The position numbers were made by a program, and so were the translations under genes. Shown piece by piece: positions 1 through 6,424 of a stretch of 6,424 nt of DNA. The stretch is from a virus. Its lineage: Duplodnaviria > Heunggongvirae > Uroviricota > Caudoviricetes. The stretch is from IMG/VR virus record IMGVR_UViG_2671180366_000012. One strand, 5' to 3'. Positions within the stretch are counted from its first letter, which is position 1, and every line of letters starts with the position of its first letter. Under the pieces are notes generated by a model that saw only the letters and a list, made by a program, of their open reading frames with translations, was not told where the DNA came from and did no database searches.

Positions 1-29
1 AAGTTGGAGTCATTACCCTGGAGCATTTG

Positions 30-2291
30 ATGATCAAGTTATCTGAAAAAGGCGTGTTTCTCGCCAGTAATAACGAAATAATTGCCGAAGAACATTTCAC
101 CGGCGAAATTAAAAAAGAAGAAGCCAAAAAAGGCACTATTGCCTGGTCTATTCTCTCTTCGCATAATACGTCCGGAAATATGGATAAACTTAAAATTAAG
201 TTTGATTCATTAGCCTCTCACGATATTACCTTTGTTGGTATTGTACAGACCGCTAAAGCGTCCGGTATGGAACGTTTCCCGCTGCCGTATGTGCTGACCA
301 ACTGCCATAACTCACTCTGCGCCGTCGGCGGCACTATTAACGGTGATGACCATGTTTTTGGTTTATCGGCGGCCCAGCGTTATGGCGGTATTTTTGTGCC
401 TCCGCATATTGCGGTCATCCATCAATATATGCGTGAGATGATGGCAGGCGGCGGCAAAATGATCCTCGGGTCAGACAGCCACACCCGTTACGGTGCATTA
501 GGGACAATGGCAGTCGGTGAGGGCGGCGGTGAGTTGGTAAAACAGCTGCTTAATGACACCTGGGATATCGACTATCCGGGCGTGGTTGCGGTGCATCTGA
601 CCGGAAAACCTGCGCCGTATGTGGGGCCACAGGATGTGGCGCTGGCTATCATTGGCGCGGTGTTCAAAAACGGTTACGTCAAAAACAAAGTCATGGAGTT
701 CGTTGGACCGGGCGTTAGCGCGCTCTCTACCGATTTCCGTAACAGCGTTGACGTGATGACCACTGAAACGACCTGTTTAAGTTCTGTCTGGCAAACCGAT
801 GAAGAAGTCCATAACTGGCTGGCGCTGCACGGTCGCGGCCAGGATTACTGCCAGCTTAACCCTCAACCGATGGCGTACTACGATGGCTGCATCAGCGTTG
901 ATTTAAGCGCCATCAAACCAATGATTGCGCTGCCGTTCCACCCGAGCAACGTGTATGAAATCGACACACTGAACCAGAACCTGACCGACATTCTGCGTGA
1001 GATTGAAATTGAGTCCGAACGCGTGGCGCACGGTAAAGCCAAACTCTCGCTGCTGGATAAAGTGGAAAATGGTCGCCTGAAAGTGCAGCAGGGGATTATC
1101 GCGGGCTGTTCTGGCGGTAACTACGAAAACGTCATCGCGGCGGCGAATGCACTGCGCGGTCAATCCTGTGGCAATGACACCTTCTCGCTGGCAGTTTACC
1201 CGTCATCACAGCCGGTGTTTATGGATCTCGCCAAAAAAGGTGTGGTAGCAGATTTGATTGGCGCAGGCGCAATCATCAGAACCGCGTTCTGCGGCCCATG
1301 CTTTGGCGCGGGCGATACGCCAATCAACAACGGTTTGAGTATTCGCCACACCACGCGTAACTTCCCGAACCGCGAAGGCTCTAAGCCAGCTAATGGGCAG
1401 ATGTCAGCGGTGGCGTTGATGGACGCTCGTTCTATCGCTGCGACTGCGGCAAACGGTGGCTATTTAACCTCTGCCAGCGAACTTGATTGCTGGGACAACG
1501 TGCCGGAGTACGCCTTCGATGTAACGCCGTATAAAAACCGTGTTTATCAGGGCTTTGTGAAAGGGGCAACTCAGCAACCGCTGATTTACGGGCCGAACAT
1601 TAAAGACTGGCCGGAATTGGGTGCGCTGACTGACAATATCGTCCTGAAAGTGTGCTCGAAGATCCTCGACGAAGTGACCACCACCGACGAACTGATTCCT
1701 TCCGGTGAAACCTCTTCTTATCGTTCAAATCCGATTGGTCTGGCGGAGTTTACCCTGTCTCGCCGCGATCCCGGTTATGTTAGCAGAAGTAAAGCGACTG
1801 CTGAGCTGGAAAATCAGCGTCTGGCGGGGAATGTCAGCGAGCTGACAGAGGTGTTTGCGCGCATTAAGCAGATTGCTGGTCAGGAGCATATTGATCCGCT
1901 GCAAACTGAAATTGGCAGCATGGTCTATGCGGTGAAACCAGGCGATGGTTCTGCGCGTGAACAGGCGGCGAGCTGCCAGCGTGTGATTGGCGGTCTGGCG
2001 AATATTGCCGAGGAGTACGCGACTAAACGCTATCGTTCTAACGTCATCAACTGGGGGATGTTACCGCTGCAAATGGCGGAAGTACCAACCTTTGAAGTGG
2101 GGGATTACATTTACATCCCTAGCATTAAAGCGGCGCTGGATAATCCGGGTACGACGTTTAAAGGTTATGTGATCCATGAAGATGCGCCGGTAACGGAAAT
2201 TACGCTCTATATGGAAAGTCTGACTGCTGAAGAGCGCGAGATTATCAAGGCGGGTAGTTTGATTAACTTCAATAAAAACCGTCAGATGTAA
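30..2291 (+). CDS. ybhJ: Aconitase-family putative hydratase (YbhJ-like), about 753 aa
   Basis: Long uninterrupted ORF; translation matches what I recall of E. coli YbhJ. The ORF track starts at TTG 27, but ATG at 30 sits 6 nt after GGAG (20..23), so ATG 30 is the likelier start. Stop TAA at 2289..2291. Position next to ybhC and the lambda att site matches the K-12 gene order. Confidence 0.88.
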
Positions 2292-2307
2292 AAAGCGCCA
2301 TGTGAAT

Positions 2308-2510
<203 letters not shown>

Positions 2511-2524
2511 ATAGTTAATTGCTC

Positions 2525-3808
2525 TTACTTCTTCGCCTCTGCAACCACTTTACTACCCACGCCGCGGTTATTGTATTCCCACATGCGGTTGTAGTTAGTG
2601 TCATTCAGATTGCGCTGTATTTCGTCGTTATCATCTACGCTGCCGGTATTACCCGCAAACGGACGATTAGAGATCACCGCATCGGCCCACGGTTTAGCCG
2701 TGTTAAAACCTTCGTTGATGGCGCTATCACGGATCACCACCTGACCGTTGGTATTGGCATCAACATCCAGCGAGCGGCCCAGTTGCGCCACACCATCACC
2801 GAAAGCATTGAAACGGCTGTTTACGGCGAGGAAACCGTAGTAAATGTTGGACAGCGTAGCCGGTGCAAACACATACGCTTCTTGCTGAGTACGTGAGTTC
2901 ACCACGCGGAATTCGGTGTTATCGAACACCACTGCGCCGCGACCAGAAACGATATCCACATCCCCTTCAATGTAGCTGTTGGTCACCAGCGTACGCGGCT
3001 GACGATTCGTTTCCAGACGGTTCTGCACACCGCTGTTGGTGACAAAGAAGGTGTTCTGACGACCGAGAATGTTAACGTTGTTAATCTGTACCTGGTCACC
3101 ATCAGTACGCAGTGCCACCGCCGGATGGTTACCTGCATCTACGCTATCGCCCAGCGTGTTTTCGATGGTCAGATTTTGCAGTTGCAGGCCATTGTTTTGT
3201 GACCAGAAGACCGCAGAGCAGAGAACACCGATACTGTCGCTGCGTTTGCTCTGGCAGCTATCGTACATATACCACGCTGGTTTACCTGGCATATATTTGC
3301 CGCGCGGGTTGACGTCGTGACGCCAGTCGGCAGGGCTCATGCCACCATCAAGGGAAAGCCCAATCTTCACATCAATCGGTTTTTCACCTGTACCGTACAG
3401 AGTAATTCCACCCGGAGCGGCAGGGACATATACCGTTCCCTGATACTCACCAGGCATCACGGCAATATACTGGCGCTTGTTGGTACGCTTGATAATTGCC
3501 GCATCTACCGCCGCCTGAATCGTGGTATGCGTTACACCTTGAGTGCCCGCCGGGCCGACAACAAAGTCAGGTTGCGCAGGCAGGGTAATCGGGGAAGGAT
3601 TCCACGCTGCAGCACCTGGTGTCAGGGATGCAAAATAGTGTTGAGCATCGAAATTCTGCGCTTCTTTTGCCGACAGAATCGGGCGAGAAGAGGTACCAGG
3701 CGCGGTTTGATCAGAAGGACGTTGATCGGGCGGGGTTGAGCTACAGGCGGTCAGCGTCACGCCAAAAGCCAATGCCAGCGCCAGACGGGAAACTGAAAAT
3801 GTGTTCAC
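2525..3808 (-). CDS. ybhC: Outer-membrane lipoprotein YbhC (pectin methylesterase-like fold; annotated as acyl-CoA thioesterase), 427 aa
   Basis: ORF on the - strand; N-terminus MNTFSVSRLALALAFGVTLTACSS is a lipoprotein signal peptide with lipobox LTAC. Start is GTG (complement of 3806..3808) with GGAG 6 nt upstream on the - strand. Stop TAA is complement of 2525..2527. Translation matches what I recall of E. coli YbhC. Confidence 0.88.
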   Translation of the reverse strand: MNTFSVSRLALALAFGVTLTACSSTPPDQRPSDQTAPGTSSRPILSAKEAQNFDAQHYFASLTPGAAAWNPSPITLPAQPDFVVGPAGTQGVTHTTIQAAVDAAIIKRTNKRQYIAVMPGEYQGTVYVPAAPGGITLYGTGEKPIDVKIGLSLDGGMSPADWRHDVNPRGKYMPGKPAWYMYDSCQSKRSDSIGVLCSAVFWSQNNGLQLQNLTIENTLGDSVDAGNHPAVALRTDGDQVQINNVNILGRQNTFFVTNSGVQNRLETNRQPRTLVTNSYIEGDVDIVSGRGAVVFDNTEFRVVNSRTQQEAYVFAPATLSNIYYGFLAVNSRFNAFGDGVAQLGRSLDVDANTNGQVVIRDSAINEGFNTAKPWADAVISNRPFAGNTGSVDDNDEIQRNLNDTNYNRMWEYNNRGVGSKVVAEAKK

Positions 3809-3854
3809 AGGTTGCTCCGGGCTATGAAATAGAAAAATGAATCCGTTGAAGCCT

Positions 3855-3869
3855 GCTTTTTTATACTAA
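3855..3869. other. att core (overlap region O) of attL, sequence GCTTTTTTATACTAA
   Basis: Exact 15-bp lambda core. Upstream flank ccgttgaagcct is the bacterial attB arm; downstream flank gttggcattataaaaaagcattgcttatcaatttgttgcaacgaacaggtcactatcagtcaaaataaaatcattatttg is the lambda P' arm as I remember it. Confidence 0.92.
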
Positions 3870-3950
3870 GTTGGCATTATAAAAAAGCATTGCTTATCAA
3901 TTTGTTGCAACGAACAGGTCACTATCAGTCAAAATAAAATCATTATTTGA
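3870..3950. promoter_or_regulatory. P' arm of attL: IHF H' site (3895..3907, tATCAAtttgTTG) and three tandem Int arm-type sites (about 3915..3947)
   Basis: IHF consensus WATCAANNNNTTR is matched at 3895..3907. Arm-type-like repeats caggtcactat / cagtcaaaat / aaatcattat lie at 3915..3947 and overlap the 3' end of int, as in lambda. Confidence 0.65.
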
Positions 3951-5013
3951 TTTCAATTTTGTCCCACTCCCTGCCTCTGTCATCACGATACTGTGATGCC
4001 ATGGTGTCCGACTTATGCCCGAGAAGATGTTGAGCAAACTTATCGCTTATCTGCTTCTCATAGAGTCTTGCAGACAAACTGCGCAACTCGTGAAAGGTAG
4101 GCGGATCCCCTTCGAAGGAAAGACCTGATGCTTTTCGTGCGCGCATAAAATACCTTGATACTGTGCCGGATGAAAGCGGTTCGCGACGAGTAGATGCAAT
4201 TATGGTTTCTCCGCCAAGAATCTCTTTGCATTTATCAAGTGTTTCCTTCATTGATATTCCGAGAGCATCAACATGCAATACTGTTGGGATGGCAATTTTT
4301 ACGCCTGTTTTGCTTTGCTCGACATAAAGATATCCATCTACGATATCAGACCACTTCATTTCGCATAAATCACCAACTCGTTGCCCGGTAACAACAGCCA
4401 GTTCCATTGCAAGTCTGAGCCAACATGGTGATGATTCTGCTGCTTGATAAATTTTCAGGTATTCGTCAGCCGTAAGTCTTGATCTCCTTACCTCTGATTT
4501 TGCTGCGCGAGTGGCAGCGACAGGGTTTGTTGTTATATGGCCTTCAGCTATTGCCTCTCGGAATGCATCGCTCAGTGTTGATCTGATTAACTTGGCTGAC
4601 GCCGCCTTGCCCTCGTCTATGTATCCATTGAGCATTGCCGCAATTTCTTTTGTGGTGATGTCTTCAAGTGGAGCATCAGGCAGACCCCTCCTTATTGCTT
4701 TAATTTTGCTCATGTAATTTATGAGTGTCTTCTGCTTGATTCCTCTGCTGGCCAGGATTTTTTCGTAGCGATCAAGCCATGAATGTAACGTAACGGAATT
4801 ATCACTGTTGATTCTCGCTGTCAGAGGCTTGTGTTTGTGTCCTGAAAATAACTCAATGTTGGCCTGTATAGCTTCAGTGATTGCGATTCGCCTGTCTCTG
4901 CCTAATCCAAACTCTTTACCCGTCCTTGGGTCCCTGTAGCAGTAATATCCATTGTTTCTTATATAAAGGTTAGGGGGTAAATCCCGGCGCTCATGACTTC
5001 GCCTTCTTCCCAT
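3943..5013 (-). CDS. int: Tyrosine recombinase, lambda integrase Int, 356 aa
   Basis: Full-length ORF on the - strand. Translation matches lambda Int as I recall it, including the C-terminal ...HLLGHKSDTMASQYRDDRGREWDKIEIK with the catalytic Tyr 15 residues from the end. An intact BamHI site (ggatcc, 4113..4118) lies inside the gene. Start ATG is complement of 5011..5013. Confidence 0.96.
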   Translation of the reverse strand: MGRRRSHERRDLPPNLYIRNNGYYCYRDPRTGKEFGLGRDRRIAITEAIQANIELFSGHKHKPLTARINSDNSVTLHSWLDRYEKILASRGIKQKTLINYMSKIKAIRRGLPDAPLEDITTKEIAAMLNGYIDEGKAASAKLIRSTLSDAFREAIAEGHITTNPVAATRAAKSEVRRSRLTADEYLKIYQAAESSPCWLRLAMELAVVTGQRVGDLCEMKWSDIVDGYLYVEQSKTGVKIAIPTVLHVDALGISMKETLDKCKEILGGETIIASTRREPLSSGTVSRYFMRARKASGLSFEGDPPTFHELRSLSARLYEKQISDKFAQHLLGHKSDTMASQYRDDRGREWDKIEIK

Positions 5014-5209
5014 TTCTGATCCTCTTCAAAAGGCTACCTGTTACTGGTCGATTTAAGTCAACCTTTACCGCTGATTCGTGGAACAGATACTCTCTTCCAT
5101 CCTTAACCGGAGGAGGGAATATCCTGCACTCGCGTACCCATCGACGAACTGTTTCAAGGCTTCTTGGGCGTCGCTGGCGTGCGTTCCACTCCTGAAGTGT
5201 CAAGTACAT
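4991..5209 (-). CDS. xis: Excisionase Xis, 72 aa
   Basis: ORF MYLTLQEWNARQRRPRSLETVRRWVRECRIFPPPVKDGREYLFHESAVKVDLNRPVTGSLLKRIRNGKKAKS matches lambda Xis. Its 3' end overlaps the int start by 23 nt (4991..5013), as in lambda. Confidence 0.95.
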   Translation of the reverse strand: MYLTLQEWNARQRRPRSLETVRRWVRECRIFPPPVKDGREYLFHESAVKVDLNRPVTGSLLKRIRNGKKAKS

Positions 5210-5221
5210 CGCAAAGTCTCC

Positions 5222-5235
5222 GCAATTACACGCAA
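5222..5235 (-). promoter_or_regulatory. cII-binding direct repeat TTGC-N6-TTGC of the int promoter pI
   Basis: The - strand reads TTGCGTGTAATTGC just upstream of the xis start codon. In lambda this is the cII recognition motif of pI, whose transcript starts inside xis so that Int is made without Xis. Confidence 0.6.
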
Positions 5236-5236
5236 G

Positions 5237-5257
5237 AAAAAACCGCCATCAGGCGGC
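5237..5257 (-). terminator. Short GC hairpin followed by a U-run on the - strand (terminator-like), overlapping the orf55 stop codon
   Basis: The - strand reads GCCGCC-UGAU-GGCGG-UUUUUU: a 5-6 bp stem from 5243..5247 pairing with 5252..5256, followed by six T (complement of A 5237..5242). The stem is short, so termination efficiency is uncertain. Confidence 0.35.
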
Positions 5258-5416
5258 TTGGTGTTCTTTCAGTTCTTCAATTCGAATATTGGTTACGTCT
5301 GCATGTGCTATCTGCGCCCATATCATCCAGTGGTTATAACAGTCGTTGATGTTCTCTGCTTCGATAACCCTGTTGAATGGCTCTCCATTCCATTCACCTG
5401 TGACTCGGAAGTGCAT
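5249..5416 (-). CDS. Small conserved lambda ORF (55 aa) between xis and the accessory region
   Basis: Not in the supplied track (below its length cutoff). The - strand reads ATG...TGA giving MHFRVTGEWNGEPFNRVIEAENINDCYNHWMIWAQIAHADVTNIRIEELKEHQAA. GGAG lies 7 nt upstream of the ATG. Same size and position as the 55-codon ORF I recall after xis in lambda. Confidence 0.65.
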   Translation of the reverse strand: MHFRVTGEWNGEPFNRVIEAENINDCYNHWMIWAQIAHADVTNIRIEELKEHQAA

Positions 5417-5427
5417 TTATCATCTCC

Positions 5428-5454
5428 ATAAAACAAAACTCGCCGTAGCGAGTT
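5428..5454 (-). terminator. Rho-independent terminator-like hairpin for leftward transcription, downstream of the 142-aa gene
   Basis: Perfect 7-bp stem aactcgc (5437..5443) / gcgagtt (5448..5454) with 4-nt loop cgta. On the - strand it is followed by UUUUGUUUU (complement of 5428..5436). Confidence 0.45.
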
Positions 5455-5499
5455 CAGATATAATTTCCACCAAAGGCAGTAGTTGCTTGATGCTAAGAA

Positions 5500-5928
5500 T
5501 TATTCAATATCTATTCCTGTAATATCTTTTATCTTTTTCCTTGCAAAGCCTTTTGCTAGTGATTTTGAAACACTCATAAGTGTACTAATTCCCTCATCCT
5601 TAAAGTTTGTTTTTATAGCTTGCCAGACATCCTTTTGACGTAAGTCAGCAATAAAATCATGCCCTCTTGCTGTCAACCTCAGTGGTACTTCGATCCAACT
5701 ATATCCAACACCTTCCCCTAACGCTTTGGACAATATATGACCGAACCCAGGTTTTCCATCAACCCTGACTATTAATTCGTAGTCACATAATAATCGCATA
5801 TGGAAAATAAAATCTTGGTCATATCTATTAAAGCCATTATCCTCTAGTTCACTAAGCATCGTGTCAGGGCCACGAGTTTTTTCGAATGCGATAAGTAGAT
5901 CTTTTAGATATTGCTGGTCTAATTTCAT
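5500..5928 (-). CDS. Hypothetical protein, 142 aa, AT-rich moron-like gene in the prophage accessory region
   Basis: ORF with strong RBS: the - strand reads GGAGG-cggca-ATG. Composition is conspicuously AT-rich compared with flanking genes. No signal peptide, transmembrane segment or family motif that I recognise. Confidence 0.75.
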   Translation of the reverse strand: MKLDQQYLKDLLIAFEKTRGPDTMLSELEDNGFNRYDQDFIFHMRLLCDYELIVRVDGKPGFGHILSKALGEGVGYSWIEVPLRLTARGHDFIADLRQKDVWQAIKTNFKDEGISTLMSVSKSLAKGFARKKIKDITGIDIE

Positions 5929-5938
5929 TGCCGCCTCC

Positions 5939-5950
5939 GTGACATGTCAC
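5939..5950. promoter_or_regulatory. 12-bp perfect palindrome GTGACATGTCAC between a -10-like TATAAA and the RBS of the 142-aa gene (candidate operator or 5' UTR hairpin)
   Basis: Perfect dyad at 5939..5950 in the 28-bp intergenic spacer. On the - strand the order is TATAAA (complement of 5956..5961), 5 nt, palindrome, GGAGG, ATG. No good -35 hexamer is apparent. Confidence 0.3.
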
Positions 5951-5956
5951 AGAGAT

Positions 5957-6295
5957 TTATATCATTAATTTTGTTTCGTGCCAGCCTTTGGTCACCCAGC
6001 ATTGTGAGTCACCATTACACGGGCATGAATTAACAGGAACTCTCTCGCCGCACTTACCGCACCGTTTTCTGCTGATCGATTTTATACGCCAGCGCACACG
6101 TGCATCATCCTGGCGGCTCAGTAACGCGATGTACTCACCAAACTCGCAAGGCGCACGCCTGAAGCGACGCGTGGCACAGTTACGCTCCAGCATTTCAATT
6201 TCCTGAGCATCAAGTACAAGCTCCAGCTTACGCATACCGGATGATGCTTGCTTGGCTCTCTGATCGGCTTTGTGCTCTGTTGCTGATTTAGCCAT
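5957..6295 (-). CDS. Hypothetical protein, 112 aa, with C-terminal cysteine cluster (possible zinc ribbon)
   Basis: ORF with AGGA 8 nt upstream of the ATG on the - strand. C-terminal region RKRCGKCGERVPVNSCPCNGDSQCW contains CxxC, CxC and a further Cys; the N-terminal half is basic and predicted helical by eye. Composition is near 50% GC, unlike the downstream 142-aa gene. Confidence 0.7.
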   Translation of the reverse strand: MAKSATEHKADQRAKQASSGMRKLELVLDAQEIEMLERNCATRRFRRAPCEFGEYIALLSRQDDARVRWRIKSISRKRCGKCGERVPVNSCPCNGDSQCWVTKGWHETKLMI

Positions 6296-6424
6296 TCTGC
6301 TTTTCCTGCATCAGGAGAAAGACAATCATGGCGGTGATGCTGCCAACTTACTGATTTAGTGTATGATGGTGTTTTTGAGGGGCTCCAGTGGCTTCCACCT
6401 TTCTCTTGTACACATATCCCAGCC

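Follow-up and report, generated by a model that had tools for sequence, protein, structure and literature searches.

The DNA considered here, a stretch of 6,424 nucleotides referred to below as the window, is a junction between the E. coli chromosome and a prophage at the lambda attB site adjoining ybhC, and it raises the question of where its lambda-like sequence ends, what lies beyond, and which kind of event brought the two together. The initial annotation had followed lambda-like sequence through a 55-codon open reading frame and the hairpin at 5437-5454, and had placed a probable mosaic breakpoint towards novel cargo in the interval 5455-5499. The elements to the left of that point, and the joint itself, are the following:

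27-2291, plus strand: ybhJ, chromosomal
2525-3808, minus strand: ybhC, chromosomal, with a REP cluster between ybhJ and ybhC
3855-3869, no strand: attL core GCTTTTTTATACTAA, left end of the prophage, equal to the lambda att core at 27724-27738; the alignment to lambda starts here
3943-5013, minus strand: int, lambda-type integrase, 99.7% identical to lambda (3 mismatches in 1071 nt)
4991-5209, minus strand: xis, excisionase, 96.9% identical to lambda over the 196 nt outside the overlap with int
5240-5259, minus strand: terminator-like hairpin between xis and orf55 (terminator scan), in the place of t'-I of phage 434
5249-5416, minus strand: orf55, a lambda gene of 55 codons and unknown function (phrog_676, E=1.7e-39), 96.4% identical to lambda 29118-29285
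5426-5455, minus strand: hairpin 1 and its U-tract, terminator-like in a leftward (pL-direction) transcript (terminator scan and RNA fold)
5461-5464, no strand: mosaic joint, from the base-by-base comparison with lambda

The product of int is annotated as an integrase in lambda, in phage Chlobot and in E. coli strain YJ6 (NZ_AP023235), the last of which is identical to the window over 1-6397 save for three SNPs, and orf55 is the last lambda-like gene before the joint. On the chromosomal side, the Rfam family naRNA4 (RF02564) was matched at 2386-2456 on the plus strand, within the REP/BIME cluster between ybhJ and ybhC, with 60.7 bits against a gathering threshold of 59.5.

Comparison of the whole window with the complete lambda genome by blastn gave a sole alignment, between window 3855-5464 and lambda 27724-29333, ungapped and with 98.94% identity over 1610 nt, and the same gapless alignment (98.9%) was recovered by megablast in a database of 50,697 phage records. 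Both the 55-codon frame and the hairpin at 5437-5454 are real and shared with lambda. In the ungapped register, successive 50-nt bins up to 5460 hold 50, 46, 48 and 49 identical positions, while those from 5461 on hold 15, 14, 17 and 11, which is the random level; the fall from 49/50 in 5411-5460 to 15/50 in 5461-5510 bears out the loss of the lambda match right after the hairpin that had been noted. Base by base, the unbroken match ends at 5460, position 5461 is a mismatch, the AAT at 5462-5464 matches, and the random level follows. The alignments to phages 434, HK106 and mEp332 stop at 5460, and that to lambda at 5464. The most parsimonious position of the joint is 5460/5461, at the left edge of the interval proposed, and as the AAT could belong to either side it may lie as far as 5464/5465. 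Past the joint there is no lambda match, so that identity to lambda is interrupted in 5455-6424: with 5461-6424 as query against the lambda genome, the best blastn E-value was 0.14 and tblastx returned nothing at E<=0.01. From the joint it is 6 nt back to the hairpin at 5437-5454 and 39 nt on to the DUF2513 stop codon, and the open reading frames on both sides are full length.

Hairpin 1 is located just upstream of the orf55 ribosome-binding site and is the last element held in common with lambda. The terminator scan called a minus-strand site at 5455-5436, with 8 pairs followed by TGTTTTATGG, and the 8-pair stem with 4 G-C pairs, followed by UGUUUUAU on the minus strand, corresponds to a predicted intrinsic terminator; its RNA fold has -13.8 kcal/mol and z=-3.5. 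Scanning IMG/VR for the orf55 leader yielded at least 120 contigs, 118 of which were long enough to be analysed. Position 5440 is polymorphic among these listed contigs (T in 66, C in 52), and the two variants give A-U or G.U in the minus-strand RNA and, for C, a C.A mismatch on the plus strand; since pairing is kept only on the minus strand, this indicates that hairpin 1 matters on the leftward transcript. A second hairpin, GATAAAAGAAATCCCCGCGAGTGCGAGGATTGTTA, annotated as terminator t-L4 in the phage 434 record M60848, is retained in 95 of the 118 listed contigs, whose sequences beyond it fall into about seven cargo groups. The joint of the window, TTCAGATA followed directly by TAATTTCC, removes t-L4 and is carried by 12 of the listed contigs, and the other 11 have different joints within about 20 nt. 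The spacer of about 40 nt upstream of orf55 is a recurrent module boundary, with at least six distinct joints. An exchange joint at a terminator or gene boundary, as had been suggested, agrees with the int-xis-orf55 block meeting non-lambda DNA past hairpin 1; the boundary is of that type, but it is not at the usual site, since the 95 listed relatives diverge after t-L4. The lineage of the window broke between the tandem hairpins and lost t-L4, which leaves hairpin 1 as the only terminator-like structure ahead of orf55.

To the right of the joint, the window holds these elements:

5465-5499, minus strand: 3' untranslated tail of DUF2513, occupying the place of the t-L4 hairpin of lambda and 434
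5500-5928, minus strand: DUF2513 protein of 142 aa (Pfam DUF2513, PF10711; phrog_585), modelled as a winged helix with C-terminal helices
5940-5951, no strand: GTGACATGTCAC, a perfect palindrome of 12 bp, one base upstream of GGAGG, the DUF2513 ribosome-binding site
5957-6295, minus strand: protein of 112 aa with a Cys-rich C-terminus, phrog_536 'transcriptional regulator' (E=7e-48)
6333-6397, plus strand: left end of an IS1 (identity to IS1 ends 97-98%), which cuts the cargo block

The frame at 5500-5928 matches the Pfam DUF2513 profile over positions 1-100 of 100 with 42.5 bits (cut-off 29.6). Its 99 homologues are named DUF2513 or have that Pfam domain and are all uncharacterised; the named ones come from Enterobacterales such as Citrobacter, Serratia, Yersinia, Cronobacter and Pantoea, with distant relatives in other phyla. 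An AlphaFold model built from a 37-sequence alignment (pLDDT 92.9, pTM 0.83) predicts a winged-helix domain with a C-terminal helical extension, for which a Foldseek search returned nothing significant and a sequence search of the PDB nothing below E=0.87. In the literature searched, DUF2513 was mentioned in a single paper, on an unrelated topic. For the 112-aa protein, NCBIfam gave only a sub-threshold 'LexA regulated protein' match (16.8 bits, cut-off 62), and none of the PADLOC defence models matched orf55, DUF2513 or this protein. The two genes are neighbours, again 28 nt apart, in Cronobacter prophages as well, where they precede the small terminase gene and the proteins of the pair are 62-64% identical to those of the window (62.5% for the phrog_536 neighbour); the cargo therefore starts with a two-gene unit that moves between phage slots, and the Cronobacter pairing argues that the pair is old. 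At the DNA level, the phrog_536 gene is about 91% identical from 5964 on to the podophages TL-2011b and phiV10, which are devoid of the DUF2513 gene.

Absent from lambda, as the term 'novel cargo' had implied, this DNA is not new to the databases. Phage Chlobot (PP925838), an isolate from puddle water, matches 3855-6334 at 100% but for a single SNP, at 4430. Of the 5,426 complete E. coli genomes, 141 have 80% or more of 5200-6334, a span that includes the joint, and 184 carry at least part of 5461-5960. The cargo is already present in public annotated records, in Chlobot and under the PGAP names 'DUF2513 domain-containing protein' and 'hypothetical protein'. Annotations conflict over 5957-6435 (8103-8581 in Chlobot, L002), where PGAP calls the single 112-aa frame, which has full-length phrog_536 support, and the Chlobot record has instead a 46-aa 'transcriptional regulator' and an overlapping 105-aa 'UmuD-like protein'.

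The far end of the non-lambda segment is invisible in the window because IS1 cuts it at 6333, so that only the first 870 bp can be seen. In the relatives without this interruption, E. coli AMSHJX01 and phage Chlobot, homology to lambda returns, with 97% identity, at lambda 30094 within ea22, which means that lambda 29334-30093 (760 bp), comprising t-L4, ea8.5 and the 3' portion of ea22, is missing, and that 1,990 bp stand in its place. The left and right joints share no 8-mer, and there is consequently no sign of transposition; neither terminal inverted repeats nor a target-site duplication, the marks of an IS or transposon, were found, and the IS1 at 6333 lies away from the joint. By this sequence comparison, what took place is the replacement of a segment, not an insertion. 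The locus combines a step-like change in identity, a position at a gene and terminator boundary, homology resuming further on, and modules that occur in other combinations, namely the orf55 leader with about seven other cargo groups, the phrog_536 gene in TL-2011b and phiV10, and the phrog_536-DUF2513 pair in Cronobacter, all of which characterize mosaic joints.

We therefore consider it very probable, from these alignments, that 5455-5499 holds a historical recombination seam, that is, a mosaic joint of modular exchange in a lambda-like prophage. Recombination between two lambda-like genomes would be the most likely history, having placed to the left of 5460 a lambda-type attL-int-xis-orf55 module with its leader hairpin, and to the right an accessory block running in the same leftward direction. 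Such a joint would persist because it damaged no gene, lying as it does in non-coding DNA, with the retained hairpin on one side and the incoming gene's stop codon on the other. Either homologous exchange within a short stretch common to both genomes or illegitimate recombination may have produced it, and a search for the donor of the cargo did not find one: the 33 IMG/VR contigs that match the left end of the cargo all have the orf55 leader on its left. The different contexts of the cargo seen in some E. coli genomes (H176-H181) turned out to be independent IS1 insertions and not other joints. From the cargo through to int, every gene is read leftward, and the promoter scan found no minus-strand promoter upstream of 5928, from which we infer that the cargo would be transcribed as exo-xis is in lambda, from pL in the early leftward operon under N antitermination.

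An alternative that we regard as very unlikely is that a mobile element or 'moron' was inserted into otherwise intact lambda-type sequence, 5461 being one end of the insertion. Morons are lone accessory genes that have entered between conserved genes of a phage. A later insertion would also fit the fact that 5461-5963 is occupied by one gene and is AT-rich (37.4% GC, versus 45.7% on the left and 50.7% on the right), a base composition that differs from its neighbours, as in morons, and DUF2513 is dispensable in related phages, given that DNA identity to TL-2011b and phiV10 starts only at 5964 and DUF2513 can thus be absent beside phrog_536; in addition, IS1 is found in the cargo block three times, in different strains. 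However, lambda is not resumed where it was left off, with the 760 bp gone, and the joints lack the common 8-mer of a repeat or duplication. Unlike morons, the DUF2513 gene has no minus-strand promoter or terminator of its own according to the consensus scan, a weak test in which its nearest terminator is the shared hairpin 1, and it accompanies phrog_536 in other genera, the pair being kept in Cronobacter.

Still less likely, in our opinion, is that the break is explained by some functional element residing in 5455-5499 itself, be it a promoter, a small RNA or a recombination site. The joint does give the plus strand a perfect TATAAT (5459-5464), but this hexamer lacks an acceptable -35 partner, and neither promoter nor terminator was called in 5455-5499 by the consensus scan. 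Rfam, run over the whole window, matched naRNA4 alone and nothing near the joint, and folding of the minus strand over 5417-5505 falls short of significance (z=-1.7), with hairpin 1 as the sole stable hairpin of the centroid. The stretch is simply the tail after the DUF2513 stop codon; in all of 33 IMG/VR loci and of 184 E. coli genomes, 5465-5499 accompanies that gene. The joint is a scar without function of its own, and not a device.

The two remaining explanations have almost no probability left. That the discontinuity is an assembly chimera or a sequencing artefact might be thought of because the last 27 nt (6398-6424) are unmatched after the IS1 repeat and could be a draft contig end, but a chimera at 5461 is ruled out by independent assemblies, as the same 5460/5461 joint is present in an isolated phage and in the 141 complete genomes, from unrelated hosts and countries. 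That the DNA to the right of 5461 is homologous to lambda ea8.5 and ea22 and has diverged in place beyond recognition found no support, although Ea22 is known for its high diversity (PMC7093339), and is excluded by the step-like profile, in which identity drops from 98% to random within five bases, with no similarity by tblastx and with different protein families (DUF2513/phrog_585 and phrog_536).

The recombination seam is readily placed among known systems. Mosaic module boundaries in lambda-like phages are a general concept of the classical literature, and at those of lambda, 434, HK97 and HK022 near-identity changes to unrelated sequence at a gene or terminator boundary while modules are shared in different ways, which is also the case here; a literature search on modular exchange in lambdoid phages and 434 returned no paper. 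The closest worked example is the int-xis-ORF55 region of the 434 record, which has the same orf55 island with the flanking t'-I and t-L4 annotated. In 434, in lambda and in the 95 listed relatives divergence begins after t-L4, whereas the joint of the window is about 30 nt nearer orf55. With respect to the lambda exo-xis region, the cargo occupies the same slot between xis and exo, in leftward orientation and with small accessory genes, but DUF2513, phrog_536 and further genes replace ea8.5 and part of ea22. In the literature, exo-xis comprises early-expressed, dispensable genes that modulate the lysis-lysogeny decision; in the passages of a report on that region (PMC8614690), the ea22-xis interval is its non-conserved part, and ea8.5 and orf55 are unique to lambda among the phages compared; DUF2513, phrog_536 and the further cargo genes are not discussed in those passages. 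Chlobot follows the same course as the window, from the att core through the joint to the cargo up to 6334, but it is intact, without IS1, and has different ORF calls over 5957-6435. The feature is of a known kind, and all that is mildly new is the deletion of t-L4, the existence of at least six joints in the orf55 spacer, and a conserved palindrome upstream of DUF2513. The result sets the exact edge of the lambda-identical segment, which matters little beyond correct annotation, and it flags DUF2513 as an uncharacterised winged-helix family that is a common passenger of enterobacterial temperate phages; the view of phage mosaicism is unchanged by this joint.

A second mosaic boundary is found on the other side of orf55, at the hairpin between xis and orf55 (5229-5259). 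Identity to HK97 stops at 5246, and phage 434 has an additional ORF114 between t'-I and ORF55. Three IMG/VR loci (L047, L141 and L025) have orf55 and the cargo block beside other int modules, their sequence being common with the window only from 5229/5233 on and the int to the left being different or 76% identical. Since both sides of orf55 are boundaries, the gene and its two flanking hairpins make up a conserved island between variable regions, and this island could supply the homology that lets int-xis and accessory modules reassort. Divergence from lambda is uneven within the left block: the untranslated stretch between att and int and the spacer between xis and orf55 are both 100% identical, compared with 99.7% for int, 96.9% for xis and 96.4% for orf55. 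This unevenness suggests further, older exchange points within the 'lambda-identical' part of 3943-5460.

The palindrome GTGACATGTCAC may serve as an operator or in translational control. Chance alone would give about 1.6 such palindromes per 6.4 kb, so that only its conservation carries weight: the core TGACAT(G/C)TCA recurs ahead of DUF2513 in Cronobacter, Enterobacter mori, Yersinia frederiksenii and Serratia, with different flanking spacers. It is not a general feature of DUF2513 genes, being absent upstream of homologues with 50% identity or less. In Serratia prophages (L151-L153, 4921-5000) the gene upstream of DUF2513 is unrelated, and a remnant resembling the 3' end of phrog_536 (GGCTGGCATGAGACAAAATT) precedes the palindrome, which points to another mosaic joint, probably inside the phrog_536 gene. 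One might speculate that phrog_536, DUF2513 and the palindrome form a self-regulated module of two DNA-binding proteins moving between slots of temperate phages, although we hold this idea to be doubtful; if true, the module would confer a selectable trait on the lysogen or on the phage, such as control over lysis versus lysogeny or the ability to exclude other phages. Equally tentatively, the loss of t-L4 in this lineage could alter the amount of early leftward transcription reaching orf55, xis and int.

With regard to the right end of the window, Chlobot and AMSHJX01 run uninterrupted across 6334/6335, and YJ6 has the same IS1 insertion as the window; beyond it YJ6 carries the lysozyme gene rrrD, a lysis protein and trkG, and not the exo-xis genes of the uninterrupted relatives. 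The IS1 at 6333 lies in a region called a partial 'DNA repair protein' by PGAP and 'UmuD-like' by the annotators of Chlobot. The last 27 nt at 6398-6424 (CACCTTTCTCTTGTACACATATCCCAGCC) come after just 65 nt or so of IS1 and are not part of it; they had no match in the 5,426 complete E. coli genomes, where a low-complexity filter may have contributed to the miss, nor in GTDB representatives, IMG/VR and JGI metagenomes, and they are possibly an unreliable contig end at a repeat. Lastly, IS1 has entered the cargo block independently in at least three lineages, near 5493 in NCTC9040, near 5942 (inside the palindrome) in 99-3165, and at 6333 in the window and YJ6, and these three events suggest a local target preference of IS1 in this AT-rich block.
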